Origin: Patescibacteria group bacterium
GTDB lineage: Bacteria > Patescibacteriota > Microgenomatia > Levybacterales > UBA12049
Assembly (NCBI GenBank): GCA_038062115.1
Contig: JBBTXS010000012.1
Location: 23,141-87,140, forward strand
Length of the DNA: 64,000 nucleotides
Direction: 5' to 3'
The first letter of the stretch is position 1. Each line of letters starts with the position of its first letter. This document shows positions 1,800-62,358 of this stretch, one piece after another. Both the position numbers and the translations under genes were made by a program. The notes beneath the pieces were generated by a model that was not told the DNA's origin, ran no database searches, and was given only the letters and a program-made list of their open reading frames with translations.

Positions 1800-3362
1800 A
1801 TGAAATATATAGGATATTGCAGGAAATCAACGGATGAAAAAGATAGACAGATTTTATCTATAGAAGCTCAAATAGCAGAGCTGACCGAATTTGCTAGACG
1901 CGAAGGTCTGGAAATTTCAGAATTTATTACAGAGGCAAAGACAGCAAAAATTCCAGGCCGTGAACAATTTGACAAACTCTTAATGCTGCTTGAAAAAGGA
2001 AAAGCTCAAGGAATTATCTCATGGCATCCCGACCGCTTAGCTCGTAATTCCATTGATGGCGGAAAGATTATTTACTTACTCGATACAGGAAAACTTCTTG
2101 ACCTAAAATTCCCATCACATTGGTTTGAGAATACACCGCAAGGGAAATTTATGCTTAGTATCGCTTTTAGTCAGTCGAAATATTATATTGACAATCTTTC
2201 CGAGAATGTTAAAAGAGGTTTAAGACAAAAATTAAGAAACGGTGTTTATCCCGGAAAAGCATTTTGGGGATATGCGAACAATAAAGAGTTGGGAATTATT
2301 GAGGTTGATGTGACAGAGTCCAAGATTATCAAAAAGGCTTTCCAGTTATTTGCTAGTGGCGGAAAAACTTTTATGGATATTTCCCGCTTCTTACATAAGC
2401 ATGGACTTACCCAAAAAAACGGCAAAGATCTAAAAATAGACAGGATAAAAGAAATTCTTTCAAATAAATTTTACATTGGCATCATCTTTTACGCAGGAGA
2501 ATACTACGAAGGAAAACATAAGTTGTTTATTTCGAAAACATTATTTGACCGAGCGCAAAAACAGTTCAAATTCACTGAAAGATCAAAGCCCAATAACAAA
2601 CACAATTTATCTTTCTTAGGACTGTTGAAATGCGGTGAATGTAAAGCAAGTATTACCGGAGAAATGAAAATAAAATATTACAAAGAAACCCAAAGAAAAG
2701 CTGAATATATTTATTACAGTTGTACTAAAAAACTGGGAAACTGTTTGCAGAAACCAATTCCAGAGCCGGAACTGGAATTACAAATAAGAAAAGCGGTTAG
2801 CGATGTGGCCTTGCCCGAAAGTTGGGCTAGCGATTGGTATAAATGGCTTGAAAGAGATGAGATAACAGAAAAACAATTGAAAGAAGAAAATTTACAGAAA
2901 TTAAATGAAGAAATAAAAGCTCTGGATCAAAAATTAAATTTTCTTTTAGATAGTTACTTGGACAGCGTTATTGATGCCGATATCTACAAGAAAAAGAAAA
3001 ATGAATTATTCGAGGAGAAACTAAGAAAACAAGAAGAAATTACCAAGTTGCAGACCAATGGTTCAAGTTGGCTCGAACCTTTCAAGGAATTCGTAGATAG
3101 CGCATTACAATGCGGAAAAATTGCGCGCGAAAAAAAAACAAAAGAAGAATTGGCATTCTTCGCAAAAACTGTCGGCTCGAACTTCTTTTTAACTGATCGG
3201 CAACTTTTCCCATCCTACAATTTGGGCTTTGCAGACCTCCAAACGCAATCTCTCGTCCAAAGTCCCCAAACGCAGGCTTTTGAAAAGTCCCAATGTGAGC
3301 GGGATACGGGAGTCGAACCCGTCTTTTCAGATTGGAAATCTGACGTTGAACCGCTCAACTAA
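1800..3362 (+). CDS. Large serine recombinase (resolvase/invertase N-terminal domain, recombinase domain and zinc ribbon). The ORF has no stop until it has read through the right inverted repeat and tRNA-Gly, so the true 3' end is uncertain.
   Basis: The N-terminus YCRKSTDEKDRQILSIEAQ...RLARN is a serine-recombinase catalytic motif. The Cys cluster CGECKASITGEMK...YYSCTKKLGNC is a zinc ribbon typical of large serine recombinases, followed by a coiled-coil region. Confidence 0.8.
   Translation: MKYIGYCRKSTDEKDRQILSIEAQIAELTEFARREGLEISEFITEAKTAKIPGREQFDKLLMLLEKGKAQGIISWHPDRLARNSIDGGKIIYLLDTGKLLDLKFPSHWFENTPQGKFMLSIAFSQSKYYIDNLSENVKRGLRQKLRNGVYPGKAFWGYANNKELGIIEVDVTESKIIKKAFQLFASGGKTFMDISRFLHKHGLTQKNGKDLKIDRIKEILSNKFYIGIIFYAGEYYEGKHKLFISKTLFDRAQKQFKFTERSKPNNKHNLSFLGLLKCGECKASITGEMKIKYYKETQRKAEYIYYSCTKKLGNCLQKPIPEPELELQIRKAVSDVALPESWASDWYKWLERDEITEKQLKEENLQKLNEEIKALDQKLNFLLDSYLDSVIDADIYKKKKNELFEEKLRKQEEITKLQTNGSSWLEPFKEFVDSALQCGKIAREKKTKEELAFFAKTVGSNFFLTDRQLFPSYNLGFADLQTQSLVQSPQTQAFEKSQCERDTGVEPVFSDWKSDVEPLN
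3198..3300. repeat. Right arm of the 103-bp perfect inverted repeat
   Basis: It is the exact reverse complement of 1649..1751 and overlaps the 3' end of tRNA-Gly by about 3 bp. Confidence 0.9.
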
Positions 3363-3368
3363 TCCCGC
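3298..3368 (-). tRNA. tRNA-Gly (anticodon UCC)
   Basis: Manual fold of the reverse complement gives acceptor GCGGGAT/ATCCCGC, D-stem GTTG/CAAC, anticodon stem TCAGA/TCTGA with loop TTTCCAA, and T-stem ACGGG/CCCGT with loop TTCGACT. Confidence 0.85.
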
Positions 3369-3521
3369 GCATATTGATTTTATCAAATGCGATCAGTATT
3401 GTGCAAATGGAAAATTTAAGCTAAAATAACTGTGAACGTCGGGGTGGCGGAATTGGAGCGGAGTCCCGACGAGTCGGGACGAGCTCGCTTGCGAGCGTAG
3501 CGCGAGACAAGCGTGGAAGAC

Positions 3522-3605
3522 GCCGCGGTGGTGGAATGGTAGACACGAAGGCCTTAAGAGCCTTTGTTCCAAAAGAACGTGAGAGTTCGACTCTCTCCCG
3601 CGGCA
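3522..3605 (+). tRNA. tRNA-Leu (anticodon UAA), class II with a long variable arm
   Basis: Acceptor GCCGCGG/CCGCGGC, anticodon stem AAGGC/GCCTT with loop CTTAAGA, variable-arm hairpin GTTC-CAAAA-GAAC, T-stem GAGAG/CTCTC with loop TTCGACT. Confidence 0.8.
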
Positions 3606-3607
3606 CT

Positions 3608-3681
3608 CGGGGAGTAGCTCAGTTGGCTAGAGCGCACGGTTTGGGACCGTGAGGTCGGAGGTTCAAGTCCTCTCTCCCCGA
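3608..3681 (+). tRNA. tRNA-Pro (anticodon UGG)
   Basis: Acceptor CGGGGAG/CTCCCCG, D-stem GCTC/GAGC, anticodon stem CACGG/CCGTG with loop TTTGGGA, T-stem GGAGG/CCTCT with loop TTCAAGT. Confidence 0.85.
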
Positions 3682-6591: not shown

Positions 6592-6724
6592 TAATAAATT
6601 CCTCTATAGATTATATAGCATATAGATATGTATTGCACACCTCCGATGTATGCGGCTACACGGCGCAAAAGCAAATCTATTACATCTCCTTCGCAATTAT
6701 GATATATTAAAAACAGAGTTCAAA

Positions 6725-7498
6725 ATGAAAACACTAAATCTTCTTCTTACATTGTCTTCCCTAAACGTCATTTTAGTTACAATAGAAAGATTTTCTTTCA
6801 CAACAAAAATTATCTTACAACCATATAGTTTTCTAAGACTTCATGAAGTATTCCAAATAACAGTGCTAATACTTATAACTATTGTTATCCCCTTTTTTCT
6901 ATTAAAAGAAATTACTCATAATTTTGATTCGCTAAAAACTGCAAAAGGCACAATCTTAGGACTTTTTTTCGTAGTTGGCGTTTATTTATATGGCACTGGA
7001 AACGGGGTACACGAACTCGCAAGCTACTTATTTAATACATTTTGTCCTATAAAAAATTTTTCATCCTTACAATGCCAAAGCATGTATTTTAATGATTACT
7101 ATTTTGGAAACATATTGTATTTTGTAGGAGCGTTCTTAATAAATATATCTTTGATAATTTTTGAGCGAATAAAACCTAACATTAATTTCTCTAAGAAAGA
7201 TTTAGCCGTAACTTCTATAAATAGTCTTATTCTTGCATTTGCAATTTTTGCTTATTCAGCTTTTGATCGGGTGTTAGTTGGTCTTGTCTATTCTATGTTT
7301 ACTATGATTGTAGCCTATTTCTTTTTATTTACCGCGCACCACAATGCCCCGCTCGTCAGGACAATGCCCCGCCCGTTAGGTCGTGGTGCGGGGTTTACTT
7401 GGAAGAAAAAGTATATTTATATTCCATTTACTTTGTATATAACAATCGCCTATACAATTGGAACCCTAGCCTCAATAGCGATTCGATTTATTCGATAA
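6725..7498 (+). CDS. Polytopic membrane protein of unknown function; its C-terminal region carries an in-frame small repeat element
   Basis: Multiple hydrophobic helices. The ORF could start at 6650, but 6725 (MKTLNLLL) looks more plausible. Residues ...TAHHNAPLVRTMPRPLGRGAGFT... are encoded by the repeat at 7332..7399. Confidence 0.45.
   Translation: MKTLNLLLTLSSLNVILVTIERFSFTTKIILQPYSFLRLHEVFQITVLILITIVIPFFLLKEITHNFDSLKTAKGTILGLFFVVGVYLYGTGNGVHELASYLFNTFCPIKNFSSLQCQSMYFNDYYFGNILYFVGAFLINISLIIFERIKPNINFSKKDLAVTSINSLILAFAIFAYSAFDRVLVGLVYSMFTMIVAYFFLFTAHHNAPLVRTMPRPLGRGAGFTWKKKYIYIPFTLYITIAYTIGTLASIAIRFIR
7332..7399. repeat. Small GC-rich hairpin repeat (family C, ends in GGTGCGGGGTTTACT); related to 26621..26724
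   Basis: Terminal inverted repeat cgcaccac/gtggtgcg, tandem sub-units (a)caatgccccgc, and the same 3' terminus ggtgcggggtttact as the copy at 26.7 kb. Confidence 0.7.
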
Positions 7499-8267
7499 TA
7501 GTATCTTGGCTCCCTCCCAACGCATGAACCCAATCTAATAATGGAGCCCTACGGCTAAAGCCGTGGTGCATATTTAATGCCCTCCTTCGTCCCGCTCAGC
7601 GGGACTACGGAGGGTTATCCGCCACTAGCCGAGGCGACATCCGCCGTAGCTTACCCCACATTCATCCACGACTAAAGTCGTGGTTTTCTGCGAAGGCGGA
7701 TTAATTAAGGAAATAAAACTGCTTAAATGAGATGATGTTATGAGTAGGGGAAAAGATACGAATCTAAAAAAATGTGTAATGCTTATTATCTTTACCTGAT
7801 CTAATCAGAAACTTTTCAAAATTAAGCAGATTTATTACTTTAATCTGCTAGACTAGGAATGAGTATATCAGAAAATGCATGGAATGTCAATAATCACTAT
7901 AGGATAGTAATTAAAGAGGTGTTGAGTCAAGCCACCATTCGGCAATACCCATGGTTTAAGCATGGAGGGCGGAATAGATTTGCAAAAGAGGAAAGATTTC
8001 CCTCAGGGTAAATAATTGATTTCCACTGTTGCAGTGAAGCATAAATTTGGTTCCAATTCTGAAACATTTGGGCTACAGCACGTAATAGTTCACTCTTCTG
8101 ACATGAATTTTATTCTTCGATCCGTCAGCTGACGGAGAGAAGTTTTCAATGATTCTAGTTCTCTCGGCCTTTGGCGGATCGAACAATAATTTTTATGTCA
8201 GAAGTCTGAGTAGTTACTACATCACCTGTAGTTGATTTTGACTAACTCCTCATATATAATCCAAATT

Positions 8268-12721: not shown

Positions 12722-14107
12722 TTATTTGTATAGAATATTTGATCTCAACTTGCGGTGATAGAAAATTGCAAATCTGTGAGCTTCGTCGCGGATTCGCTGT
12801 GTAAGATGGAGGACTGGCGAGTCCTTTGGAAGGAAAATTTCGACAAAGCTTGCTCTGTCGTCATTCTGAGGAGCGTTAACGACTCCAGAATCTCTCCTTT
12901 CAGTGTAATTAAAGGAGACTCTGGACGCGCTCGTTCCTCGCTTGCCAGAATGACGGTTTAAGCTTAGGGGAATAATAATTGTCTCCTCCCTTTTTGCAAG
13001 TCCTATAACTGGAATTTGCATACCCTTTTCTTTTAAAGCCATAAGAGCAGAGGATACTTGACCTTTTCCCCCATCAACTATTATTAAATCGGGCATTGGC
13101 CATTCTTTGTGATTGAGCCTTCGTCCTATAACTTCTTTAATCATTGCAAAATCGTTTGGAACAGGATAAAAATTTTTAATTTTAAACCTTCTATATAAAG
13201 ATGAATCTTTGTCTCCATTAATAAAAACTACCATAGATCCAGTAGCAGATTTTCCTTGGATATTAGATATATCGTAGCATTCTATTCTTTCTAATTTTTC
13301 AGCATGTATTCCATTTTGGGAGAGTAAGCATCGTAGACTAGACAACTGATTATCTAGTGTGTCTTGAGTTAAGTTTGGGTTAACTTTATGATCAAATTGA
13401 TTGTAGGCTGGATTTGTAATTAGTTTTATGGCATCTAGTTTTTTTTGAATTAGAGCTGCTTTTTCAAATTCTTCAAGTTTACTTAAATTATCTCTTTCTT
13501 TTTTAAGATCTTTAACAACTTTTTTTGTTTTGCCATTTAAGAAAGTAATAAGATGATTAATGTTTGATCTATATTCCTTATTGCCAACAACCTCTGGACA
13601 TGGGCAAAGTCCTAAATGGTAGTATAGGCAAAGCTTTTTTTGGTGATTTATGGTGGATTGAAACGGAAAAATTTTTCGTACAGTTTTTAAGACTAAGCGT
13701 AATGCCTGAGCGTTTGGAAATGGGCCAAAATATATAGATTTTTTGTCCTGAGCTTTCCTTGCAATTAAAACTTTAGGATATTTATCTACAGTAATTCGTA
13801 TAAGGGGATATGCTTTTCCATCAGTAAGCCGTACATTATATTTTGGCTTATATTTTTTAATGTAATTTGCTTCTAACAATAGTGCTTCTATTTCTGAGGC
13901 AACTGAAATTGTTTTTATTTTTTTGATCTTTGAAATCAAAATTTTTGTCTTTGGGCTAAGCAAGTTTAGATTAGTAAAATAAGAACTAACCCGCTTTTTA
14001 AGACTTTTTGCTTTTCCAACGTACAAGACTTCATTGTTTTGGTTTAAAAATAGATATACCCCAGGCCCTTGGGATAATGATCGATAAAAGTATGCTGATA
14101 GTAACAA
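12722..14107 (-). CDS. uvrC: Excinuclease ABC subunit C (UvrC), short form; carries an in-frame palindromic-element insertion near the C-terminus
   Basis: GIY-YIG domain (GPGVYLFLNQNNEVLYVGKAKSLKKRVSSYF), UvrBC motif, LAKREE...RIRDEAHRFAIFYHRK. An insert of about 35 aa (RHSGKRGTSASRVSFNYTERRDSGVVNAPQNDDRASF) lies between LAKREE and EIFLP. Confidence 0.85.
   Translation of the reverse strand: MLLSAYFYRSLSQGPGVYLFLNQNNEVLYVGKAKSLKKRVSSYFTNLNLLSPKTKILISKIKKIKTISVASEIEALLLEANYIKKYKPKYNVRLTDGKAYPLIRITVDKYPKVLIARKAQDKKSIYFGPFPNAQALRLVLKTVRKIFPFQSTINHQKKLCLYYHLGLCPCPEVVGNKEYRSNINHLITFLNGKTKKVVKDLKKERDNLSKLEEFEKAALIQKKLDAIKLITNPAYNQFDHKVNPNLTQDTLDNQLSSLRCLLSQNGIHAEKLERIECYDISNIQGKSATGSMVVFINGDKDSSLYRRFKIKNFYPVPNDFAMIKEVIGRRLNHKEWPMPDLIIVDGGKGQVSSALMALKEKGMQIPVIGLAKREETIIIPLSLNRHSGKRGTSASRVSFNYTERRDSGVVNAPQNDDRASFVEIFLPKDSPVLHLTQRIRDEAHRFAIFYHRKLRSNILYK
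12859..12955. repeat. Palindromic element, family A (termini GTCATTCTGAG...CAGAATGAC), in frame inside uvrC
   Basis: Terminal inverted repeat gtcattctg/cagaatgac, internal imperfect palindrome tccagaatctctccttt/aaaggagactctgga, GC-rich relative to the flanks. Confidence 0.75.
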
Positions 14108-23178: not shown

Positions 23179-23253
23179 GGTCCGGTAGCTCAGTGGTAGA
23201 GCAGGAGCCTTTTAAGCTCTTGGTCCAGGGTTCGAATCCCTGCCGGATCACCA
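23179..23253 (+). tRNA. tRNA-Lys (anticodon UUU) with CCA encoded
   Basis: GGTCCGGTAGCTCAGTGGTAGAGCAGGAGCCTTTTAAGCTCTTGGTCCAGGGTTCGAATCCCTGCCGGATCACCA; anticodon loop CTTTTAA. Confidence 0.85.
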
Positions 23254-24294: not shown

Positions 24295-24390
24295 AATTCA
24301 TACTCATAATGAAAGTTTTACTCCTAATCCAGTTATATACAGCTTTTGCGTTTACTCCTGTCTCTTGGGATACTGGAATACCATCATTTT

Positions 24391-24586
24391 TGTCCTGTCT
24401 AATATTGTTAAACAAGAATAGAAATGTCCGCTTTTTTGTCATTCCGAGTGCAGTGAAACGGAGTCGAGGAATCTGATCCCTCCACTCCGCTATCGCTACG
24501 GTCGGGATGACAAACCATGTAACTTATTGTGTCTCTTAAATAGGACATTTCTATTCTTGTCTGACATGTCCTGTCTAATATTTGTT
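24391..24586. repeat. Composite palindromic element: family A core (24436..24513) nested inside an 18-bp outer inverted repeat and a ~16-bp direct repeat
   Basis: Core termini ttgtcattccgag...cgggatgacaa. Outer inverted repeat acaagaatagaaatgtcc/ggacatttctattcttgt. Direct repeat tgtcctgtctaatatt on both sides. Confidence 0.75.
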
Positions 24587-24780
24587 TCTTTATTTCTTTT
24601 GGTATAAATGTAACAGTACCCATTATATTTTATCACATCCTCACTCCTGACTTTAGAAGCCCATGATCAAGTTTCTGAACCACATGAAGATGAAGTCTTG
24701 TAATAAAATTCTCAACTGCATCTACAAACTTCTGAGAATCGCCATTAAAAGTCTCAACTTTAATGATAGCTGAAAAGTGC

Positions 24781-25764
24781 TTAATTAAAGGTATAGATTG
24801 TCTTCTCATAGTTTCCATGAATAAGTGATTTTGTTTTTGGCGTTACTTCACAAACAAATAATGTACTTGTGTTACCAATAGATTCTGCGCCTTTATACCT
24901 ATTGAATTTATCAAATACCCACCTTATCATTAAACCCAAGTCAAGAAATGCACGGTAGATAGGAAGAAATCTCTCTTTGGCTTTATCGCTAGTCCCATAA
25001 CATACATAGACCCTTGCCGACTGGTTTGTTTTATCAAGCGAATCAATGGCTCTTGAAACAAAAAGTGTTATTCCGTTTGGTGTATAGGGAGGATCCGTAA
25101 ATACCACATCAAACTTTCCCGAAAGCTTCTTAGGAAATTGCTTCCGAGCATCATAAGCGACAGTTGTTATATTGAAGCTTTGTTGTTTTGATGCCTTTCC
25201 TATGTTGTTTAAGATTCTAGTATCTATATCAAGAACTGCTATCTCTGCTGCTCTTCTATATCTAGAAATAGCCACAGAGGTAAAATCGTTATCTCCCAAA
25301 AACAATATTCTTTTCCCCGCAATGTCTTCAAAAAACTGAAGTAGTACGGCTCTTTTAGCTGTTGTTTCTATAGTTGCGGTAAATTGATCATATTCTCGTT
25401 TTGCTGCGGGGCGAAGGTCGGAACATTTCTCTAGAAGATTAATGATTTTTTCAAAACTCTCGCCACCCAAAGCAGAATATAACTCGTCTTCTATTTTGTA
25501 ATCAGTAGCAAATAGAGTCTGCATATCTTGACGCACATTTTTTTTCAATTGAGTATTCCTAGACACATCATTTAACAAAGATCTCAAAGCTTTCTTTATT
25601 TGATTTATAGCATTTTTTGAAATGCCAACTTTCATAAGCAGTTCGTGATTATCGACAGGTTTCCCCGTATGCAAAAAATAAAAAATATCCATTACCTTTT
25701 TTGTTGGAATACCAGTCTCTTTAGATACCTGCAAAATTTTCAAATATATTTGATTTCTACCCAT
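24781..25764 (-). CDS. DUF43-family protein (BpsA-like branched-chain polyamine aminopropyltransferase / MTase fold) with an N-terminal HTH-like region
   Basis: KRILFLGDNDFTSVAISRY...AVLDIDTRIL...GKFDVVFTDPPYTPNGITLFVSRAIDSL matches the DUF43 core, including the DPPYT motif. Confidence 0.5.
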   Translation of the reverse strand: MGRNQIYLKILQVSKETGIPTKKVMDIFYFLHTGKPVDNHELLMKVGISKNAINQIKKALRSLLNDVSRNTQLKKNVRQDMQTLFATDYKIEDELYSALGGESFEKIINLLEKCSDLRPAAKREYDQFTATIETTAKRAVLLQFFEDIAGKRILFLGDNDFTSVAISRYRRAAEIAVLDIDTRILNNIGKASKQQSFNITTVAYDARKQFPKKLSGKFDVVFTDPPYTPNGITLFVSRAIDSLDKTNQSARVYVCYGTSDKAKERFLPIYRAFLDLGLMIRWVFDKFNRYKGAESIGNTSTLFVCEVTPKTKSLIHGNYEKTIYTFN

Positions 25765-25833
25765 TGTTTATTAATTATAGCTACTTTCGAACTTTTTTTC
25801 ACTATGGCATTTATGCAGATCAAAACAAAACAG

Positions 25834-25965
25834 TGTAGCCGTTCAGGGTTTGACAAAACATCTGTCATCTCGAGCCTAAGCGAGAGATCTCCTTGAGATT
25901 TCTCACCTACTTCGTAGCTTCGAAATGACAATTCTTTGACAACTCCTGAACGGCTACAAAACAGT
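25834..25965. repeat. Composite palindromic element: family A core (25863..25931, tgtcatctcgag...cgaaatgacaa) with a 14-bp perfect outer inverted repeat
   Basis: Outer inverted repeat tgtagccgttcagg/cctgaacggctaca. The core resembles the other family A copies. Confidence 0.7.
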
Positions 25966-26159
25966 TTATTGATTTGCTTTTATGATCTATACTAGTATAA
26001 CTTCGTCAGGAAGATCGCAGTTATTTTGATGATTTAAAACACTTGATAGTATTTAATTAAATAAATAATATTCTTAAAGATTACAATGTACAAGATAATA
26101 AGATAAAACACGAATTAATAATCTAATAATCCATTTTTGTTCTAAAAAGAATTTATACG

Positions 26160-26345
26160 GTCGGAAAAATTACAGTAGATATTTTGTGGCGGCGTCCGCC
26201 GCCCCCGCCCAATCATGGAGTCATAGCATTAAAGGAGGGCTACCGTCAGAGAAACTTTAACCTAAGATATATTTTGGGGAGGTAGCCCGACCAACGCGAG
26301 AGCCGAACTCGGCTCGATCCGATGTGTCTGGGTTTTCCCACCTTT
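26160..26345. ncRNA. Candidate structured RNA of unknown class, or a degenerate repeat, in a GC-rich intergenic stretch
   Basis: Several strong hairpins within ~185 bp in an otherwise AT-rich intergenic region: ggcggcgtccgccgcc, gggctacc...ggtagccc, gagccgaactcggctc. No ORF is present. Confidence 0.25.
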
Positions 26346-26359
26346 CACGTAGCGATCTT

Positions 26360-26624
26360 TTACACTGTTATTGCTTCTCCAGTTTGTATGCCATAGAATT
26401 TTATTCCAAATTGTTTAAAATACTTAGTTAGTCTTTCATAAAAAGTTTCTCTTACTTTATCTCTCCAGTGCCAGTCATGGATTGGAATTATTACTTTTGG
26501 CTTTAGATAAACTGCAATTTCTACTGTTTCAACAAGACTTCCCCATGGCGCTTGTACTGGAAGAGCAAGAACTGCTTTGGTTGCACCAAAATGGAATGAA
26601 TCTCCATTTTCCTCATTTACCCCG
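26360..26624 (-). pseudogene. C-terminal fragment (~88 codons) of a metallo-beta-lactamase-fold hydrolase, with no N-terminal catalytic half, abutting a repeat element
   Basis: The minus-strand translation GDSFHFGATKAVLALPVQAPWGSLVETVEIAVYLKPKVIIPIHDWHWRDKVRETFYERL...* resembles the C-terminus of UPF0173/MBL-fold hydrolases. No HxHxDH region lies upstream. The frame is broken at the repeat at 26621..26724. Confidence 0.5.
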
Positions 26625-26724
26625 TACCCAGAATGCCCTGACCGTAAGGTCAGGGATGAATGGGTTATTTCCGCGAAGCGAACCCCTAATGCCCCGAGCG
26701 TAAGCTCGGGGTGCGGGGTTTACT
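26621..26724. repeat. Family C hairpin repeat (ends GGTGCGGGGTTTACT) with two GTAA-tetraloop hairpins
   Basis: Hairpins ccctgacc-gtaa-ggtcaggg and ccccgagc-gtaa-gctcgggg. The terminus is shared with 7332..7399. Confidence 0.7.
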
Positions 26725-26755
26725 AAAAGACACGAATGTATGTGTTTAGATATTT

Positions 26756-27085
26756 TCATTGCTCGATATTTGGTTGGAAAATTCCAGGCGGTTGCTTGCA
26801 TCCCGTTCTCTCATTTAGTATCCCAATAATTAGCCCAAGTGGCGCTCTGCACACTCCCATTGTTGTATCTATTCCTGACGACAGAGTTTCTTTTCCAAAG
26901 GGTCGATTATTTACATTCTTGGGATCAAACAACTTACAATTGCCGCAAACCTTTTCCAAACCTTCCTGACCTTGCGATGTTTCAGGTGACCCCATAATTT
27001 TAATAATATCAAACTGCCACATCTTAGGCAATATAATATCCTTTGGAAAATAACAGGAAGAGAATAAATAGTAAGATAATACCAA
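26756..27085 (-). CDS. Hypothetical small protein containing a CxxC pair
   Basis: Intact 109-aa ORF. It overlaps the upstream membrane-protein gene by 62 bp in a different frame. Confidence 0.25.
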   Translation of the reverse strand: MVLSYYLFSSCYFPKDIILPKMWQFDIIKIMGSPETSQGQEGLEKVCGNCKLFDPKNVNNRPFGKETLSSGIDTTMGVCRAPLGLIIGILNERTGCKQPPGIFQPNIEQ

Positions 27086-31365: not shown

Positions 31366-31797
31366 ATGCCAAAACTCAAAAGTCATGACCCTGAGCGAAG
31401 TCGAACGGGTCAAAAGTTAGAATGGCAGGAAGCAAAAGAGGTAAAAAAAAATATAGAAAATATTCTTAAGGTTTTAAATTTGCCTCACATCGATTCTTCT
31501 AGAATTTTTTGTTTTAGAACCAAAGGATCAAAATCAAGATCATATGCACGCATTTGGTCTATGCCAAAAATCTTTCAGACAGTTCTTAATGTAAAACCAG
31601 CTTATGTAATAGAAGTGATAGCCCGGCATTTTGATAGATTAGATACAGACGGAAAGAAAAAAGTATTAATTCACGAACTTTTGCATATTCCTAAAAATTT
31701 TTCTGGAGCGCTCTTACCTCACCGTAGTCGCAATCGGCATCTTGGAGCATTGGTGAATAGATTGTTTAAAGAATATAAGAAAATTTCTAATTCCTAA
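31366..31797 (+). CDS. Small HExxH zinc-metallopeptidase-like protein (DUF45/YgjP-, WLM- or SprT-like)
   Basis: VLIHELLHIPKNFSGALLPH contains HExxH plus a downstream His. It starts 10 bp after the DUF458 gene. Confidence 0.4.
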   Translation: MPKLKSHDPERSRTGQKLEWQEAKEVKKNIENILKVLNLPHIDSSRIFCFRTKGSKSRSYARIWSMPKIFQTVLNVKPAYVIEVIARHFDRLDTDGKKKVLIHELLHIPKNFSGALLPHRSRNRHLGALVNRLFKEYKKISNS

Positions 31798-31912
31798 TTA
31801 ACCTAATTTCTAAATAAATCCCAAAAACTAAGTTCCAATTGGGTTATTTAGACATTTAGGAATTGATTAGGTCAATTAGAAATTAGTAATTAGAAATTTA
31901 TATGATTACTAT
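31775..31912. repeat. First copy of a 138-bp perfect direct repeat (second copy at 32114..32251)
   Basis: Identical to 32114..32251. It spans the last 23 bp of the HExxH gene, the intergenic region, and ATGATTACTAT (the first 11 bp of the holA-like gene). Confidence 0.9.
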
Positions 31913-32115
31913 CCTGAGTTTCCCATTTTCGAGTAGCAAAATTAAAAAGCTTGATTTGACAATCTTTTTTTGAAAAAATTTAGTGCGAAACCGCACTACC
32001 GAAAGATTTCAAAGACAAAAGCTAATAGAAGAAATGCTATGGTTTCTAGCAGACTTTCGAGCCTAGAAATGGTTTTTTGCTAAAATTAAACCGCACTAAT
32101 TGGGAAACTCAGGAT
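31911..32115. mobile_element. 205-bp MITE-like non-autonomous element with 15-bp perfect terminal inverted repeats
   Basis: Terminal repeats atcctgagtttccca / tgggaaactcaggat, internal hairpin tagtgcg-aaa-ccgcacta, and no ORF. Confidence 0.7.
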
Positions 32116-32251
32116 AAGAAAATTTCTAATTCCTAATTAACCTAATTTCTAAATAAATCCCAAAAACTAAGTTCCAATTGGGTTATTTAGACATTTAGGA
32201 ATTGATTAGGTCAATTAGAAATTAGTAATTAGAAATTTATATGATTACTAT
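32114..32251. repeat. Second copy of the 138-bp direct repeat; contains the functional start of the holA-like gene
   Basis: Identical to 31775..31912. Confidence 0.9.
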
Positions 32252-42844: not shown

Positions 42845-42857
42845 AAACAGTATTGTG

Positions 42858-42965
42858 GCTGGGTCATAAATACCCATTTGTCATTCCGAGCGAGTGTAGC
42901 GAGTCGAGGAATCTCGTTGAAGGAGATTTCTCGGCAAGCTCGAAATGACAATTGTGACCCAGTCA
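42858..42965. repeat. Family A palindromic element with the extended terminal inverted repeat (c)tgggtcat...tgacccagtca; near-identical to 52151..52260
   Basis: Its core ttgtcattccgagcgagtgtagcgagtcgaggaatctcgttgaaggagatttctcggcaagctcgaaatgacaa differs by one base from the copy at 52.2 kb. Confidence 0.85.
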
Positions 42966-42998
42966 TAAACAGTATTATAGCAAATATTTACACCCATA

Positions 42999-43061
42999 TC
43001 ATGCTGAACTTGTTTCGGCATGAAGAGCAGGTTAGATCCTGAAATGAATTCAGGATGACAC
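42999..43061. repeat. Family B palindromic element (TCATGCTGAA...TTCAGGATGACAC); related to 61038..61089
   Basis: catgctgaacttgtttcggcatg hairpin plus atcctgaaatgaattcaggat hairpin, and a shared terminus ggatgacac. Confidence 0.7.
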
Positions 43062-44717
43062 ATTTTTGCACGCTTCAATAAAACCCAAAAATATTGGATG
43101 GGGAAGAAGAGGCTTGCTTTTGTACTCTGGATGGCCTTGTGTGCCTAAATAAAATGGATGCGTGCTATTTGGTAGTTCGATTATTTCTACAAGATTTTCT
43201 ATGACAGATCTAGCGGATATTACAAGACCAGCTTTTTCTAAATCTTTTGTATACCTTTCGTTAAATTCGTATCTGTGTCTGTGTCGCTCGTTTGTTAAGC
43301 CTTGAGAAATATTTATAAAACCACCGTATATTTCGTAAAGGCTAAATGTTCTTGTTTTAGGTTTAACAATTGCTTCCCATCCGCCCAGTCGCATAGTTCC
43401 ACCGTATGCTCTCCTTTTCATGATATTTTCTTGTTTTGGCATAAGATGTATAACTGGATGGGATGTTTTGGGATTATTCTCTGTGGTATCAGCGTCTTTC
43501 CAACCCAATACGTCGCGAGCGAAAGCAACAACTGCAAGCTGCATTCCATAGCAAAGCCCAAGATAAGGAATTTTATTAATCCTAGCGTAGGATGCAGCTT
43601 TAATCATTCCTTCAGCGCCTCGTTCTCCCCAACCTATAGGAACGATAATACCATCTGGACGTCCAAGTATACTTTCCAATTCTTCTTTATGAGATTCAAC
43701 CTTTTCTGCGTCTATCCAACGTGTTCTGACACTAACGTTCAACTGCCAGCTTGCGTGATCAATAGCGTCAAATAAAGCAGCATAAGAATCTCGAAGCTGA
43801 TAATCTCCAGTGCCAAAATATTTACCTAGAATTGCAATCTCTATGTGTTTCTTGTTGGTTTTCTTAATGCTAGATAATAAATTCTCCCAATCTTTAAGAT
43901 GAGGTGCTTTTACTTTTAAATGAAGTTTTTGCAATATTTTTTTGTCTAAATTTTGTTTATGCAGAATAAGTGGAATTTCATAAATAGAAGAAAGGTCTGG
44001 ATTAGAAATTATGTCTTCTTTATGCATATTGCAAAAAAGAGCAAATCTATCTCTTCTTCTTTGATCTAAATATTTTTCCGATCGTGCAATAATAAAATCT
44101 GGCTGAATTCCCATGGAATTTAAAGTTCTAACAGAAAGCTGAGTTGGTTTTGTTTTTGGTTCTCCAATGTGGGGCGGAGTTGGAACATAGCTTACGTGAA
44201 TATGTAAAACATCCCCTGGATTTTTAAGCGTTAATATTCTCGATGCTTCGTAGTAAAAAATATTTTGATATTCTCCTGCTGTTCCGCCTAGCTCTATAAT
44301 TACAAAGTCAGCGTTTTTTTTATGACCCAAAGTCACAATACGACGAATAATCTCATCAGTTATATGAGGTATAGCCTCAACATCTTCTCCGTTGTATTCA
44401 AAGCGCCTTTCACGATCAATAACGGTTTTGTAAATCTGCCCCATGGTAACAAAATTATCCCTCCCCATGGGCTCGCCCAAAAACTTTTCGTAACTTCCTA
44501 TATCCATATCAGACTCTGTTCCGTCTTCGCATAGGAAAGGATCACCATGCTCAATGGGATTAATAGTTCCAGCGTCCATATTAAGATAGTTTTCAAATTT
44601 AATTGGAGCGACTTTAAACCCTCTAGATTTAAGAAGAAGGGCAATTGAGGCAACTGTAGTACCTTTTCCTATTCCCGAAATAACACCACCTGAGACAAAG
44701 ATATATTTAGTGCGCAC
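43050..44717 (-). CDS. pyrG: CTP synthase
   Basis: N-terminal synthetase domain (FVSGGVISGIGKG) and a C-terminal GATase domain (GLCYGMQ). Confidence 0.95.
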   Translation of the reverse strand: MRTKYIFVSGGVISGIGKGTTVASIALLLKSRGFKVAPIKFENYLNMDAGTINPIEHGDPFLCEDGTESDMDIGSYEKFLGEPMGRDNFVTMGQIYKTVIDRERRFEYNGEDVEAIPHITDEIIRRIVTLGHKKNADFVIIELGGTAGEYQNIFYYEASRILTLKNPGDVLHIHVSYVPTPPHIGEPKTKPTQLSVRTLNSMGIQPDFIIARSEKYLDQRRRDRFALFCNMHKEDIISNPDLSSIYEIPLILHKQNLDKKILQKLHLKVKAPHLKDWENLLSSIKKTNKKHIEIAILGKYFGTGDYQLRDSYAALFDAIDHASWQLNVSVRTRWIDAEKVESHKEELESILGRPDGIIVPIGWGERGAEGMIKAASYARINKIPYLGLCYGMQLAVVAFARDVLGWKDADTTENNPKTSHPVIHLMPKQENIMKRRAYGGTMRLGGWEAIVKPKTRTFSLYEIYGGFINISQGLTNERHRHRYEFNERYTKDLEKAGLVISARSVIENLVEIIELPNSTHPFYLGTQGHPEYKSKPLLPHPIFLGFIEACKNVSS

Positions 44718-52126: not shown

Positions 52127-52150
52127 AACGTTTTGTAATATATGAGATTA

Positions 52151-52260
52151 TGACTGGGACATAAATACTCATTTGTCATTCCGAGCGAGTGTAGCGAGTC
52201 GAGGAATCTCTTTGAAGGAGATTTCTCGGCAAGCTCGAAATGACAATTATGACCCAGTCA
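52151..52260. repeat. Family A palindromic element (near-identical to 42858..42965), between atpA and atpH
   Basis: Same core with one mismatch, extended terminal repeat tgactggg.../...cccagtca, and a flanking direct repeat atatgagatta. Confidence 0.85.
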
Positions 52261-52591
52261 CATATGAGATTATATCATCTAGCCTACTTTTTAGATTGAA
52301 TTCGTAAACATTGTCGTTATCTACGATTTTTACCCCTAACATTAAAGATGGATCAATTTTGTAAACTATTTTTTTATTAGGAAATAATTTTTCAAATCCT
52401 ATGTTACTGTATGCCTTAAAAGGTGTAGTAACTATAATGTTTTTTTTATCTTCGTAATTTTTAAGCGCATCAATATACTGTTTAAGTTCGAATCTTGTAA
52501 AACAGTTTACAATGGCATATACTTTGTTGCTGTCTAAAATATCATTTTTATAACTTTCTGCCACCAAATTTTTTAGTTTGTTTCTGGTCAT
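52247..52591 (-). CDS. atpH: ATP synthase F1 delta subunit (OSCP), short form
   Basis: Operon position between atpF and atpA, and a C-terminus (DPSLMLGVKIVDNDNVYEFNLKSRL) that resembles delta. Confidence 0.6.
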   Translation of the reverse strand: MTRNKLKNLVAESYKNDILDSNKVYAIVNCFTRFELKQYIDALKNYEDKKNIIVTTPFKAYSNIGFEKLFPNKKIVYKIDPSLMLGVKIVDNDNVYEFNLKSRLDDIISYVTGS

Positions 52592-57322: not shown

Positions 57323-57412
57323 TGTCATTGCGAGCGAACTTTAGTTCGCGCGGCAATCTCTTTTGATGGGGATTGCTTCGTCTCAGGCTTCGCCTGATCC
57401 TCGCAATGACAC
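57323..57412. repeat. Family A palindromic element between dnaE and gatB
   Basis: tgtcattgcgag...ctcgcaatgacac with internal palindromes gcgaactttagttcgc, gcaatc...gattgc and tcaggcttcgcctga. Confidence 0.8.
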
Positions 57413-58857
57413 TATAATAATTGCTTTTTAATCTCTCTTTTTACTATATTAGGATCTATACTTTTTAAAATTTTTCTTAATACCATTCCTACCAAAAACA
57501 TAATCACATTTGCTTTACCTTTTTTATAATCGCTTATTGCTCTTGGATTGTCAAGAATTACTTGTTTTACTGTTTTTTCAAGGTACTTCTGATCAACAGT
57601 CGTTTTTTGCGTTGACGTAATAATACTTCGAACTAACTGCGCTGGCATTGTTTTTTCTAAATCTACTTTTTTATTGATAATCCAGTTAGCAATAACCTTT
57701 GTATTTATAGATTCCTGATTCTTAATTCTTAATTCACGATTCACTTTTACCGCTTCTTCGAAATATTCTGCAATCCCTCTATCTTTTGTTAATATTTCAC
57801 TGTCGTAATCTGACAAACCATAAATTTTTGTGAATCGTTGAAACTTTTGATCGGGTAGTTCTGTCATTTGAAATTTGAAATTTGAAATTTGTAATTCCAC
57901 CCACCGAATGGGTGGTATATCTGGCTCTGGGAAGTATCTATAATCCATTGTTTCTTCTTTTACTCTTTGAGACACTGTAATTTGTTTTTTGCTATCCCAA
58001 CCCCTTGTTTCTTGGATTGGAGTTTTTCCTGATTCTAAAATCTTTTTCTGCCTTTCTATCTCGTAATTTATTGCCTTTTCGACAAAACGGAAAGAATTAA
58101 TATTTTTTACTTCGACTTTATAGGTAGGCAACCTCTCACTGTCATTGCGAGCGAAGCGAAGCAATCCCTCTACTTTTGAGATTGCTTCGTCGCCGCGTCT
58201 GACGCGGCTTCCTCGCAATGACATTTCAGATAGTGAAATGTTAGGCTCCAACCGCATCTGCCCTCTCTCCATGTCTGCGTCTGACACGTCTAAGTATCTA
58301 ACGATTTGCTGGAGTTTTTTTAGATATTCAACGACCTCTGTTGCAGATTCAAAATCAGGTTCAGTAACTATTTCAACAAGCGGAACTCCTGATCGATTAA
58401 AATCTATCAGCGTTACTTTTTCCCCTTTTACAATAGAATGAATTAGCTTACCAGTATCTTCCTCCATGTGAACCCGACGTATCCGAATTATTTTTTTACC
58501 CTCACCTCGAAGGTGTTTATCCGTTTCACCTTCCAGGTGTACATATCCACCGACTGCAAATGGTTGATCGTATTGTGAAATCTGGTATCCCTTAGGAAGG
58601 TCTGGGTAAAAATAATTTTTCCGATCAAACTTTGAAAATAGAGGAATCTTGCAATTTAATGCAAGCCCAATCATCACACACCACTCAATTGCTTTTTTGT
58701 TTGGAACTGGTAGGGCTCCAGGGAGCCCTAAGCAGACTGGACAAACGTGAGTATTTGGGTCTTTACCAAAATAATCCACAGAACAGCCACAAAACATTTT
58801 AGATTTTGTTTTTAACTCAACATGAACCTCAAGACCTATGACTGGTTTGTACCCCAT
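57412..58857 (-). CDS. gatB: Asp/Glu-tRNA(Asn/Gln) amidotransferase subunit B, with an in-frame palindromic-element insertion
   Basis: MGYKPVIGLEVHVEL..., a zinc-binding CGCS, and KNINSF. An extra ~28 aa (EMSLRGSRVRRGDEAISKVEGLLRFARNDSE) sits in the loop before KVEVKNINSF. Confidence 0.9.
   Translation of the reverse strand: MGYKPVIGLEVHVELKTKSKMFCGCSVDYFGKDPNTHVCPVCLGLPGALPVPNKKAIEWCVMIGLALNCKIPLFSKFDRKNYFYPDLPKGYQISQYDQPFAVGGYVHLEGETDKHLRGEGKKIIRIRRVHMEEDTGKLIHSIVKGEKVTLIDFNRSGVPLVEIVTEPDFESATEVVEYLKKLQQIVRYLDVSDADMERGQMRLEPNISLSEMSLRGSRVRRGDEAISKVEGLLRFARNDSERLPTYKVEVKNINSFRFVEKAINYEIERQKKILESGKTPIQETRGWDSKKQITVSQRVKEETMDYRYFPEPDIPPIRWVELQISNFKFQMTELPDQKFQRFTKIYGLSDYDSEILTKDRGIAEYFEEAVKVNRELRIKNQESINTKVIANWIINKKVDLEKTMPAQLVRSIITSTQKTTVDQKYLEKTVKQVILDNPRAISDYKKGKANVIMFLVGMVLRKILKSIDPNIVKREIKKQLL
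58140..58224. repeat. Family A palindromic element inserted in frame within gatB
   Basis: tgtcattgcgagcgaagcgaagcaatc...gattgcttcg...ctcgcaatgacat. The reading frame stays open through the element. Confidence 0.8.
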
Positions 58858-59596
58858 TACTTCTCCTTTCCTTAACAAAATTTTGAACTTCTTGATAACT
58901 TTTCTGCCATGGCCAATAAAGCGAACCTGATAGACCATATACAGGAATACAAAAGTTAGGTCGATCTCTATTTATTGATGTCATTTCCGAAACAACAATA
59001 TCTACCGTTTCTTGTACAGTCGTACTTTTAAGATCAACACATTCTGAGAAACGGATAGAACTTAGTATTTGATCAAGTACAACAATGCCTTTAAATAATT
59101 GTGGACCTACTCTATTTTTTGCTAATTCTTCTACGGGGTTTCTTTTAGCATAAGGCTTATTTTCAACAAGAATAACACACAGATTCTCTCGGGGGATCAC
59201 GATCCTATTGAAGTTATACTTAAGATCATGCGTCGCGCTCAAAATAGCAGTTTCAAAAGATTTCTCCAACGTTACATCTGTATTAGAAAGGGATATACTA
59301 GTCTTATTTACGGGATCTACCCAGTTTCTGCTAAAAAGTATCCCTTTTTTTCTTGCAAAACTCTCAGCCACTAATCCATGGAGAAGAATTCCCCGTAGTC
59401 TATCTACTGGTAAATTTGTGAGGCCATTATTGTTATGAATATCCCCTAAGCGGATAAAGCCATGCTTAAATAACAACGGCTCAGTGTGGATGTCTACAAC
59501 TTTATTTATTGCTGCTTCTTGTGCCATTTCAATAAAGCTGGATGAATGTTCAGGACTTACTTCGACATTCATAGTATAGGTTTTTGTTTGTGCCAC
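58829..59596 (-). CDS. Hypothetical protein located between gatA and gatB
   Basis: Intact 255-aa ORF within the gat cluster. It has a weak GDIH motif but no complete metallophosphoesterase signature. Confidence 0.35.
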   Translation of the reverse strand: MAQTKTYTMNVEVSPEHSSSFIEMAQEAAINKVVDIHTEPLLFKHGFIRLGDIHNNNGLTNLPVDRLRGILLHGLVAESFARKKGILFSRNWVDPVNKTSISLSNTDVTLEKSFETAILSATHDLKYNFNRIVIPRENLCVILVENKPYAKRNPVEELAKNRVGPQLFKGIVVLDQILSSIRFSECVDLKSTTVQETVDIVVSEMTSINRDRPNFCIPVYGLSGSLYWPWQKSYQEVQNFVKERRSNGVQTSHRS

Positions 59597-61037: not shown

Positions 61038-61089
61038 AGCATCTATTTTCTGTCATGAGTAAGATTCTGAAACAAGTTCAGGATGACAC
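61038..61089. repeat. Family B palindromic element between gatA and gatC
   Basis: catgctgaatttatttcagcatc hairpin plus gattctgaaacaagttcaggatgacac. Confidence 0.7.
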
Positions 61090-61093
61090 AGAA

Positions 61094-61491: not shown

Positions 61492-62358
61492 TTATACCGA
61501 AATACCCAAGCGTTTCGCAATTGTCTCGTGGGCTTGCCATTCAAGGGAGTCGTTAAGAGAGGAGAGGTTGATAGATTTTTTGTACTTTCTCTTAAGAGCA
61601 AGTTTTATTAGGTAATCTGCAAAATGGGGATTTTTTGGGAGGATTGGGCCGTGTAAATAGCTTCCAAAACTGTTTTTATAAACTACTCCTTCTGTTTTAT
61701 CTTCTCCATTATTCCCAAAACCCTTAAGAACTTTACCCAAAGGTTTTATCTCTTTGCCAAGATAAGTTCTACCCCCATGATTCTCGAACCCAACCAGATA
61801 ATCCTTTTTGTCATTGCGAGGAGTTCTGAGCTTGTCGAAGGACGACGAAGCAATCCCATTGATTTGAGATTGCTTCACTTCGTTCGTAATGACATCTGTT
61901 TTGATGACAACATTTCCAATAAGTCTCGGTACTTTTTCTCCCCGGTTTTCTGTACATAAATCTAGGATACATAGTCCATCGATAATATTTCCGTCTGCTT
62001 CTTTGTAGTATTTGCCTAAAAACTGATAAGCGCCGCAAATATAAAGGCCTGTAACCCCATCCTCTATAATCTCTTTTAGCGCTTTTACCTTTTCTTTGCT
62101 AAAATCATGGGAAACGATTTTTTGCTGCGTATCTTGTGCTCCGCCCATAAATAGAAAATCACAAGATCTTAAATCTTGAATCTTAAATCCTAAATCTAAA
62201 TGTTTTACCTTAGTCTCAATCTTTCGCCATTCACATCGCTTTTGAAGACAAATAATATTACCTCTATCGCCATAGGTACTCATTAACTCTGGATACAACC
62301 AACCAATAACCAACTTATAATTCATACACTTATTGTCATCCCGAGCGAAGGGATGCAC
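61492..62358 (-). CDS. gatD: GatD-like glutamine amidotransferase (CobB/CobQ-type GATase partner of MurT), with an in-frame palindromic-element insertion
   Basis: It is adjacent to murT, has a GATase-like Cys context (LYICGAYQFLG), and ends in HGP. An inserted ~29 aa (DVITNEVKQSQINGIASSSFDKLRTPRNDKKD) is encoded by 61809..61895. Confidence 0.7.
   Translation of the reverse strand: MHPFARDDNKCMNYKLVIGWLYPELMSTYGDRGNIICLQKRCEWRKIETKVKHLDLGFKIQDLRSCDFLFMGGAQDTQQKIVSHDFSKEKVKALKEIIEDGVTGLYICGAYQFLGKYYKEADGNIIDGLCILDLCTENRGEKVPRLIGNVVIKTDVITNEVKQSQINGIASSSFDKLRTPRNDKKDYLVGFENHGGRTYLGKEIKPLGKVLKGFGNNGEDKTEGVVYKNSFGSYLHGPILPKNPHFADYLIKLALKRKYKKSINLSSLNDSLEWQAHETIAKRLGISV
61809..61895. repeat. Family A palindromic element inserted in frame within gatD
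   Basis: tgtcattgcgag...gaagcaatcccattgatttgagattgcttc...cgtaatgacat. Confidence 0.8.

Follow-up and report, generated by a model that had tools for sequence, protein, structure and literature searches.

Nested repeats flanking a DUF43 gene in a Patescibacteria genome are very probably miniature transposable elements

The window analyzed here is a 64,000-nucleotide stretch of DNA from a Patescibacteria metagenome-assembled genome of the Hainich aquifer, with Levybacteria as its nearest named relatives. In this window, a BpsA_C/DUF43 gene (PF01861, E = 1e-46, Pfam) sits between two composite repeats, C1 and C2, and an alpha/beta hydrolase gene comes next. In each composite, a palindromic core, designated family A, is bracketed by outer inverted and direct repeats. 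We assign a probability of about 0.87 to the reading that the composites are MITEs (miniature inverted-repeat transposable elements), short non-autonomous derivatives of insertion sequences (IS) with DDE transposases, that C1 comes from an IS of the IS1202 family, and that C1 and C2 were inserted independently without carrying the DUF43 gene. The MITEs measure 160 bp (C1), 123 bp (C2), and 114 bp (C3, described below) and contain no transposase gene. Their terminal inverted repeats are 18 bp and perfect in C1 (about 24 bp if imperfect pairs are counted), 13/14 bp and perfect in C2, and 16 bp with one to two mismatches in C3. Because no transposase was found among the window open reading frames (ORFs) examined, the elements depend on an enzyme encoded elsewhere. 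Such a transposase would recognize the terminal inverted repeats, which are the outer inverted repeats of the initial annotation of this DNA, and would make staggered cuts in the target; repair of these cuts would give the flanking direct repeats.

Every repeat that the initial annotation had listed is present at the coordinates given there. To these we add the flanking direct repeat of C2, AAAACAGT (25827-25834 and 25958-25965), and two further composites (42854-42967 and 52149-52262) with a third kind of outer repeat, C3. The 18-mer of C1, ACAAGAATAGAAATGTCC, has two exact occurrences against 0.22 expected from shuffled controls with three mismatches allowed, and the 14-mer of C2, TGTAGCCGTTCAGG, has two against 0.16 expected from shuffled controls. 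Chance is an unlikely explanation of the outer repeats of C1 and C2. The suggestion that these structures are composite MITEs with target-site duplications was borne out. The C1 ends are those of IS1202-family IS, its 16-bp direct repeat has the duplication length of that family, and C2 and each C3 copy are missing as whole units from precise empty sites. The outer repeat and the core travel as a single unit.

The loci compared were L001-L003, from the same strain as the window (L002 is a 99.9%-identical strain variant), L004, the locus of a DUF43 ortholog with 89% amino acid identity, L128, with a hydrolase ortholog of 86% amino acid identity, and L193 and L194, syntenic relatives for the C3 sites with an atpA 92% identical.

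Empty sites of C2 and C3

C2 is positioned 71 nt upstream of where the DUF43 gene starts. The features of this site, none with an assigned strand, are given below.

25815..25978: pre-existing small hairpin GCAGATCAA/TTGATTTGC, the loop of which received C2; also in L004, with weak 50-nt arms (I1) in the window
25827..25834: left target-site duplication of C2, AAAACAGT, 8 bp (AAACAG, 6 bp, if the element starts TGTAGCC), from the L004 empty site
25835..25957: MITE C2, 123 bp, terminal inverted repeats (T)GTAGCCGTTCAGG, perfect over 13/14 bp; L004 has a clean gap of 131 nt here
25849..25856 and 25935-25942: inner direct repeat TTTGACAA, 8 bp, bracketing the C2 core, as read from the sequence
25864..25929: family-A core in C2
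25958..25965: right target-site duplication of C2

L004 aligns on both C2 flanks and lacks exactly 131 nt, corresponding to the element and one duplication. On the window minus strand, the filled site reads caataaACTGTTTT, then the element (gtagccgttcagg...core...cctgaacggctac), then ACTGTTTTgttttgatctg, and the empty site of L004 reads caataaACTATTTTattttgatctg. The perfect 14-bp inverted repeat TGTAGCCGTTCAGG (25834-25847 / 25945-25958) is absent from the L004 empty site, so the outer repeat belongs to the insertion and not to a native hairpin. The small hairpin around the site is uninterrupted in L004 (CAGATCAA...TTGATCTG).

The two C3 copies, also without an assigned strand, are located as follows.

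42854..42967: MITE C3 copy A, 114 bp, terminal inverted repeat TRTGACTGGGTCATAA, core 42880-42949; duplications AACAGTAT, 8 bp, at 42846-42853 and 42968-42975
52149..52262: MITE C3 copy B, 114 bp, core 52175-52244; duplications TATGAGAT, 8 bp, at 52141-52148 and 52263-52270

Copies A and B are 96% identical over 107 nt, and their flanks and perfect 8-bp duplications are different. Neither copy is present in L193/L194, which provide precise empty sites for both. At one site, the window reads ATCTCATA[element]ATCTCATA, against a single ATCTCTTA in the relative; at the other, ATACTGTT[element]ATACTGTT stands against a single ATACTATT. A 14-bp duplication with a mismatch was also tried for C3 and was ruled out, as the ends read TRTGACTGGG and the L193/L194 empty sites give 8 bp. 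Copy A is 1 nt upstream of the ATG of an rplS-like gene. Copy B, 14 nt upstream of the atpA ATG, falls within the final codons of the atp ORF that precedes atpA and rewrites the C-terminus of that ORF from ISYITKRYD-stop to ISYVTGS-stop, with a TAA in the terminal repeat as the new stop. With ends that begin 5'-TGT/TRT and duplications of 6-8 bp, C2 and C3 are MITEs of other parent elements than that of C1.

These empty sites bear on a second suggestion, that cores insert into pre-existing hairpins such as terminators. In its strict form, the outer repeats would be native local hairpins (terminators or operators) into which the cores alone were inserted. One part of the hairpin-targeting idea stood, since the whole of C2 was inserted into the loop of a small native hairpin that L004 shares; additionally, some cores from IMG/VR lie in long local palindromes without duplications. 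The outer repeats themselves, however, are not native. They are missing from the C2 and C3 empty sites, those of C1 are IS ends found in many genomes, and no G+C-rich stem followed by a T-run was found at C1 or C2. The IS-end match, the copies elsewhere, the duplications, and the empty sites identify the outer repeats as transposon ends rather than local terminators, and we regard the strict form as extremely improbable.

C1, its IS1202-family relatives, and the DUF43 gene

C1 lies between the end of the DUF43 operon and the start of the hydrolase gene, between a conserved upstream segment and the hydrolase ribosome-binding site. Its parts are listed below, with a strand where one is assigned.

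24391..24406: left target-site duplication of C1, TGTCCTGTCTAATATT, 16 bp, a perfect direct repeat with 24567-24582
24407..24566: MITE C1, 160 bp, with both IS1202-family (ISNCY) IS ends around a family-A core, from the alignment to IS ends and the same element elsewhere
24407..24434, + strand: C1 end like the IS end reading TGTCAGACAAGAATAGAAATGTCCGCTTTT, from alignment
24438..24511: family-A core in C1, two inverted imperfect palindromes, -38.8 kcal/mol, z = -5.6
24512..24566, - strand: C1 end like the other IS end, with terminal TGTCAGACAAGAATAGAAATGTCC and a decayed second copy of the subterminal repeat, CACAATAAGTTACATGG, from alignment
24567..24582: right target-site duplication of C1, a copy of TGTCCTGTCTAATATT

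The perfect 18-bp inverted repeat ACAAGAATAGAAATGTCC of C1 occupies 24412-24429 and 24543-24560, and its arms extend to 29 nt at 86%. A 71-aa read-through, without a match to any family, is the sole ORF that spans C1. We scanned one genome per species for the C1 18-mer and found it in 23 stretches, mostly of Patescibacteria (Levyibacteriota, Roizmanbacteria, Hainich bins). Many of these are at contig ends, where a repeated IS is expected. A second scan, of metagenome contigs including the Hainich assemblies, resulted in 38 more loci. In the stretch L153, two inverted copies of the 18-mer lie 1.39 kb apart and enclose a 433-aa ORF. Against NCBIfam NF033594 (transpos_ISNCY_2, ISNCY family transposase), this ORF scores 381 bits, with a cut-off of 250, and IS481 follows with 90 bits, below its own cut-off. 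The L153 IS is bordered on both sides by CACAGCCTGCCCATC(T), a 15/16-bp duplication. Intact autonomous elements with C1 ends were found in L153, L147, L152, L145, and others.

The C1 ends align to both ends of the full-length 1.40-1.43 kb IS copies of L153, L147, and L140. The stretches of the IS that C1 retains are about 30 nt long at one end and about 55 nt at the other, and the core occupies the position of the transposase gene. The alignment reaches GTCCGCTTTT at one end and passes through the decayed second copy of the subterminal repeat at the other. Both C1 and the IS start at one end with TGTCAGACAAG (5'-TGT); the other end reads (T)GTTAAAC in C1 and TCTTAGAC/TATTAAAC in the IS copies. 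Among 14 examined IS copies of 1.40-1.68 kb, six have flanking duplications of 14-18 bp (exactly 16 bp in four), eight have no duplication or merely a 4-bp match, and none contains a family-A core. Most duplications of the IS and MITE copies are 15-17 bp, with outliers of 14 bp (L181) and 18 bp (L139/L175, L176).

In the survey of the IS1202 family, the passage on the ISTde1 subgroup defines it by 15-17-bp direct repeats and gives ends that start 5'-TGT. Since C1 and its partners fit this repeat length and these TGT ends, the 16-bp direct repeat of C1 is a genuine target-site duplication. Judged by its ends, C1 clearly derives from an IS of the IS1202 family (formerly ISNCY), in the subgroup with 15-17-bp duplications, and an IS1202-type transposase would be the enzyme that moves it. 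The ISTde1 assignment is by repeat length, TGT ends, and transposase family. The intact partners encode a 433-aa ISNCY_2-type DDE transposase; C1 has retained their two ends and produces a repeat of the same length, 16 bp. In contrast to these elements, C1 has no transposase, and its interior is an unrelated palindromic module. The hosts found here also differ, as they are Patescibacteria (Microgenomates), outside the phyla that this passage of the survey lists for the subgroup. In L139 (1210-1540, the same as L175), an IS1202-type MITE abuts a solo IS end, which results in an 88-nt direct repeat of the end region; this arrangement is an example of IS1202-type elements landing side by side.

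The same 160-bp MITE was also found at four other loci of the H51 assembly, each with other flanks; the copies of L157 and L185 are identical to it.

L157: perfect flanking duplication GAGGCAAAAAGTATTG (16-17 bp in L157 and L185)
L185: perfect flanking duplication AGAGTGTTTAATTGTT(T)
L159: duplication GTTCTATA(A)TTTAACAT, 16/17 bp including a single indel; apical loop of the core longer by 24 nt
L178: no flanking duplication; 24 extra nt in the apical loop of the core

It had been suggested that the DUF43 gene between C1 and C2 could have been mobilized as a unit.

24781..25764, - strand: BpsA_C/DUF43 gene (Pfam), in no mobile unit; L004 has the gene without C2

In this proposal, C1 and C2 would form a composite transposon that brought the gene. 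Two mobile elements do bracket it, and the DUF43-hydrolase adjacency was seen only in the window, L001, and L002, that is, in this species. The DUF43 ortholog of L005, the sole one with an informative downstream flank, is followed by a SAM_HAT_C gene, and the hydrolase orthologs L126-L131 have other upstream sequence. However, C1 and C2 are not two copies of one element; their ends are unrelated, so that no single transposase could act on both as a pair. An intact duplication of its own borders each element on both sides, in place of one duplication at the outer edges of the pair. Moreover, L004 has the DUF43 gene and about 190 nt of homologous flank past the C2 site without C2. The gene is thus no cargo of C1 and C2 in our reading, and we give the composite-transposon explanation almost no credence.

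The check for the same neighbors elsewhere likewise lent it no support, as the differing neighbors in L005 and L126-L131 are unexplained by C1 or C2. In L002 and the hydrolase orthologs looked up (L126-L131), the hydrolase gene is followed by TreT_GT1 and Asp/Glu racemase genes. In their place, the window has a 96-aa ORF and a tRNA (23179-23250) after the hydrolase stop at about 23482, and the hydrolase gene end is a rearrangement or insertion breakpoint. No result ties this gene-order variation around DUF43 and the hydrolase to the C1 and C2 elements. In L004 (1240-1788), the C-terminal part of an IS4/ISC1217-like DDE transposase begins about 28 nt past the DUF43 stop, where L004 diverges from the window. 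The DUF43 neighborhood attracts mobile elements.

Several results weigh against the reading of the composites as MITEs. The check for empty sites in relatives succeeded for C2 and both C3 copies and failed for C1. L128, the closest available hydrolase ortholog locus, lacks a larger block with edges that are not clean.

24326..24621: 296-nt block holding C1, absent from L128

L128 joins ...gataaaatataat straight to aggagtaaaac..., and the window has the 296 nt in between. C1 and one duplication make up 176 of these; the other 120 nt lack a clean duplication, and their ends (GGGATACTG.../...CAGTACCC) are weakly similar to each other in inverted orientation. A long degenerate duplication at the block edges (CAGGAGTRA...) was considered and was not convincing. 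The remaining loci gave no C1 empty site: L001-L003 are uninformative as the same strain, L004 diverges right after DUF43, and the upstream regions of L126-L131 are unrelated. L126 and L127, tried as a filled/empty pair, have identical sequence. In addition, the C1-type copy of L178 is without a duplication, and the C2 duplication length is ambiguous, being 8 bp, or 6 bp if the element is TGTAGCC...GGCTACA. No autonomous partner was found for C2, which is single-copy in all that was searched (0.4 Mb of fetched relatives; metagenome contigs with a 20-mer), and neither an autonomous partner nor a further copy was found for C3 (0.4 Mb of fetched relatives; viral contigs with an 18-mer). Finally, the standard MITE model leaves unexplained why one core is shared by three unrelated types of end.

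The family-A core inside unrelated elements

At least three unrelated kinds of MITE end (C1, C2, C3) each enclose a family-A core. The head motif GTCATYYCGAG (at most one mismatch) has 18 matches in the window against 1.9 expected, and about ten are full copies. All cores fold strongly, with energies between -22 and -48 kcal/mol and z-scores between -3.0 and -7.7. The core consists of an imperfect palindrome in two inverted copies with a variable spacer, and two folds are open to it, a single long hairpin with side arms and a pair of neighboring hairpins. A pentamer at core positions 4-8 (ATTGC, ATTCC, ATCTC, ATTCT, or ATCCC) recurs inside the core, in reverse complement and direct orientation (at most one mismatch), in 12 of 12 cores. 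Because it recurs in the interior of all of them, the four half-sites change together across subfamilies. A REPIN is a pair of repetitive extragenic palindromic (REP)-like imperfect palindromes, inverted and with a spacer, for which both such folds have been described, and the family-A core looks like a REPIN in this architecture.

Singlet-like units occur directly past the stop codons of the CTP synthase and GatC genes (43031-43062 and 61059-61090; hairpin GTTAGATCCTGAA..TTCAGGATGACACA) and look like a single half of the core. The unit at 43031-43062, together with about 60 nt, is missing in L193. Around plain family-A copies there is neither a target duplication nor, apart from T|GTCAT...ATGAC|A, a flanking motif. 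The plain core between GatB and DnaE gave no readable empty site, as the relative is too diverged.

Three cores are in frame in genes.

58141-58222: family-A core in GatB (57412-58938, - strand)
12860-12955: family-A core in UvrC (12722-14107, - strand)
61810-61895: family-A core in a GatD-like amidotransferase (61492-62358, - strand)

These cores leave the ORFs unbroken, and the Pfam domains are about 27-44 residues longer than the profiles. The GatB core reads through as 28 codons (84 nt; ...SLRGSRVRRGDEAISKVEGLLRFARND..., protein ...GLLRFARND...). The insert falls in a loop that is a short linker, without the insert, in L193 and in solved GatB structures.

Outside the window, the pattern GTCATTSCGAG-N44-74-CTCGSAATGAC matched at least 120 IMG/VR contigs (L006-L125) with a GC content of 34-73%, which means that family A is spread far more widely than Patescibacteria. 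Some of these loci (L090, L113) contain tandem core arrays. Rfam gave no meaningful match for cores or composites at gathering or permissive (E up to 10) thresholds, and only tRNAs passed gathering. The literature contained the core sequence as primer coincidences only, and no description of the family was found. A REP-associated tyrosine transposase (RAYT) was found in none of the window ORFs scanned, and a crude motif scan of the fetched loci resulted in one IS200-like ORF unlinked to cores. No enzyme for family A was found.

We infer that the core is a passenger, which entered either ready-made MITEs or IS copies that later lost their insides. Under the first route, cores that are themselves mobile and favor palindrome centers would have entered ready-made MITEs, and the chimeras would then have been amplified by the MITE transposases. 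This secondary nested insertion concerns only the origin of the core and not the MITE reading. Its probability comes close to even. The intact IS have no core, and in at least three MITE lineages on IS1202-type ends (the window, L137, and L132/L164 types), both the core subfamily and its distance from the ends differ from one lineage to the next. Cores are also present in C2 and C3, the ends of which are unrelated. The window-type core lies exactly between GCTTTT and AAA(A)GC-like sequences, which is the dyad center, and the 8-bp direct repeat TTTGACAA around the C2 core is possibly the scar of a nested insertion. Four of the approximately ten window cores are inside MITEs, the interiors of which make up about 0.3% of the sequence. 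Among the IMG/VR matches listed, inverted repeats specific to the locus bracket 14 of 132 cores, compared with 1.4% when pairings are shuffled; some of the 14 pairs are neighboring cores, and the clear cases are without duplications. On the other hand, no minimal MITE without a core was found; of the IS derivatives, just a 496-bp deletion form (L179, L184) is coreless. Most cores are outside palindromes, no enzyme is known for the core, and its plain copies, which have neither target duplication nor conserved target motif, also lack a direct repeat of the inner type seen in C2.

Under the second route, capture at birth, a core landed in a full-length IS, and deletions on both sides of it removed the transposase gene. 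Cores do sit in coding genes (GatB, UvrC, GatD), and the L132-type MITE retains extra IS sequence on both sides of its core. However, this route requires two deletions per lineage in at least three lineages, and 0 of the 14 examined copies of about 1.4-1.7 kb carry a core, and we consider it rather unlikely.

A broader and equally doubtful proposal takes family A as a cross-phylum REPIN-like element with its own mode of movement, which would settle preferentially in palindrome centers, MITE interiors among them, and in loops of essential proteins that tolerate it. It would gain a second route of spread through borrowed DDE transposases, as a parasite of parasites. If true, this proposal would explain the core in three end types within 64 kb and in at least three IS1202-type MITE lineages of other Patescibacteria.

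Known repeat systems and other structures of the window

Classical bacterial MITEs include Correia/NEMIS, ERIC, RUP, Nezha, and others. The composites share with them a length of about 100-230 bp, terminal inverted repeats, target-site duplications, and the lack of an ORF; they are likewise multi-copy, polymorphic between relatives, and often beside or inside operons and co-transcribed. The sequences are unrelated, however, and three unrelated kinds of end share one inner module here, whereas conserved ends with a variable inside are usual.

The family-A core shares with REPINs the inverted imperfect palindromes with a spacer, the two folds, the singlets, and plain copies without target duplication. 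It differs in that no RAYT was seen in the window, in that the cores are not strictly extragenic, with three in frame in genes, and in the near-identical head GTCATTGCGAG across contigs of 34-73% GC. REPs are usually lineage-specific. Rickettsia palindromic elements (Ogata et al. 2000) are reportedly palindromic repeats in frame in conserved protein genes and apparently translated. The core alone, not the composites, resembles them by its in-frame copies (28 codons in GatB, absent in L193), but sequence and host are unrelated. The small dispersed repeats of Nostoc (Elhai et al. 2008) are said to be 21-27 nt long and to occur inside their own copies and inside minitransposons. They are alike as small structured repeats nested in minitransposons and differ in being cyanobacterial and unrelated in sequence.

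The window contains other structures of repeat type. On the minus strand, two same-frame ORF pieces (26343-27085) are split by a segment with three stop codons, an element at about 26630-26758 with GC-rich hairpins that belong to another repeat family (AATGCCCCGAGCGTAAGCTCGGGGTGCGGGGTTTACT). This repeat has a related copy at 7341-7399, in frame in a membrane-protein-like ORF (6650-7498). The split ORF was considered as an MBL-fold hydrolase, for which there was no Pfam support. Between C2 and the split ORF, 26160-26340 is a hairpin-dense, GC-rich stretch in an otherwise 35%-GC region; it had no Rfam match at the permissive threshold, and L004 has a different GC hairpin at the matching place. 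A 38-nt inverted repeat (82%) surrounds a palindromic center at 8090-8209, and a 138-nt perfect direct repeat, with copies 339 nt apart and internal 19-nt inverted repeats, occupies 31775-32251. Both are probably further small mobile elements. A large serine recombinase (1800-3362; Resolvase, Recombinase, and Zn_ribbon_recom domains) lies beside a tRNA cluster (3298-3681), which together may be the edge of an integrated element.

The composites themselves are of a known kind, MITEs with terminal inverted repeats and target-site duplications. The nested architecture around DUF43 is thereby ordinary transposon anatomy, with the parent IS family named for one element, and the idea of DUF43 mobilization is removed. 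What may be new is that a REPIN-like module, widespread and undescribed, recurs in association both with unrelated MITEs and with coding sequences. This recurrence in unrelated MITEs and essential genes could lead to a new mobilization mechanism, although none is shown here. For the annotation of Patescibacteria, the results mean that MITEs occupy very tight sites, such as those near atpA, rplS, and the hydrolase gene, and that they give rise to spurious ORFs and to breaks in assemblies.

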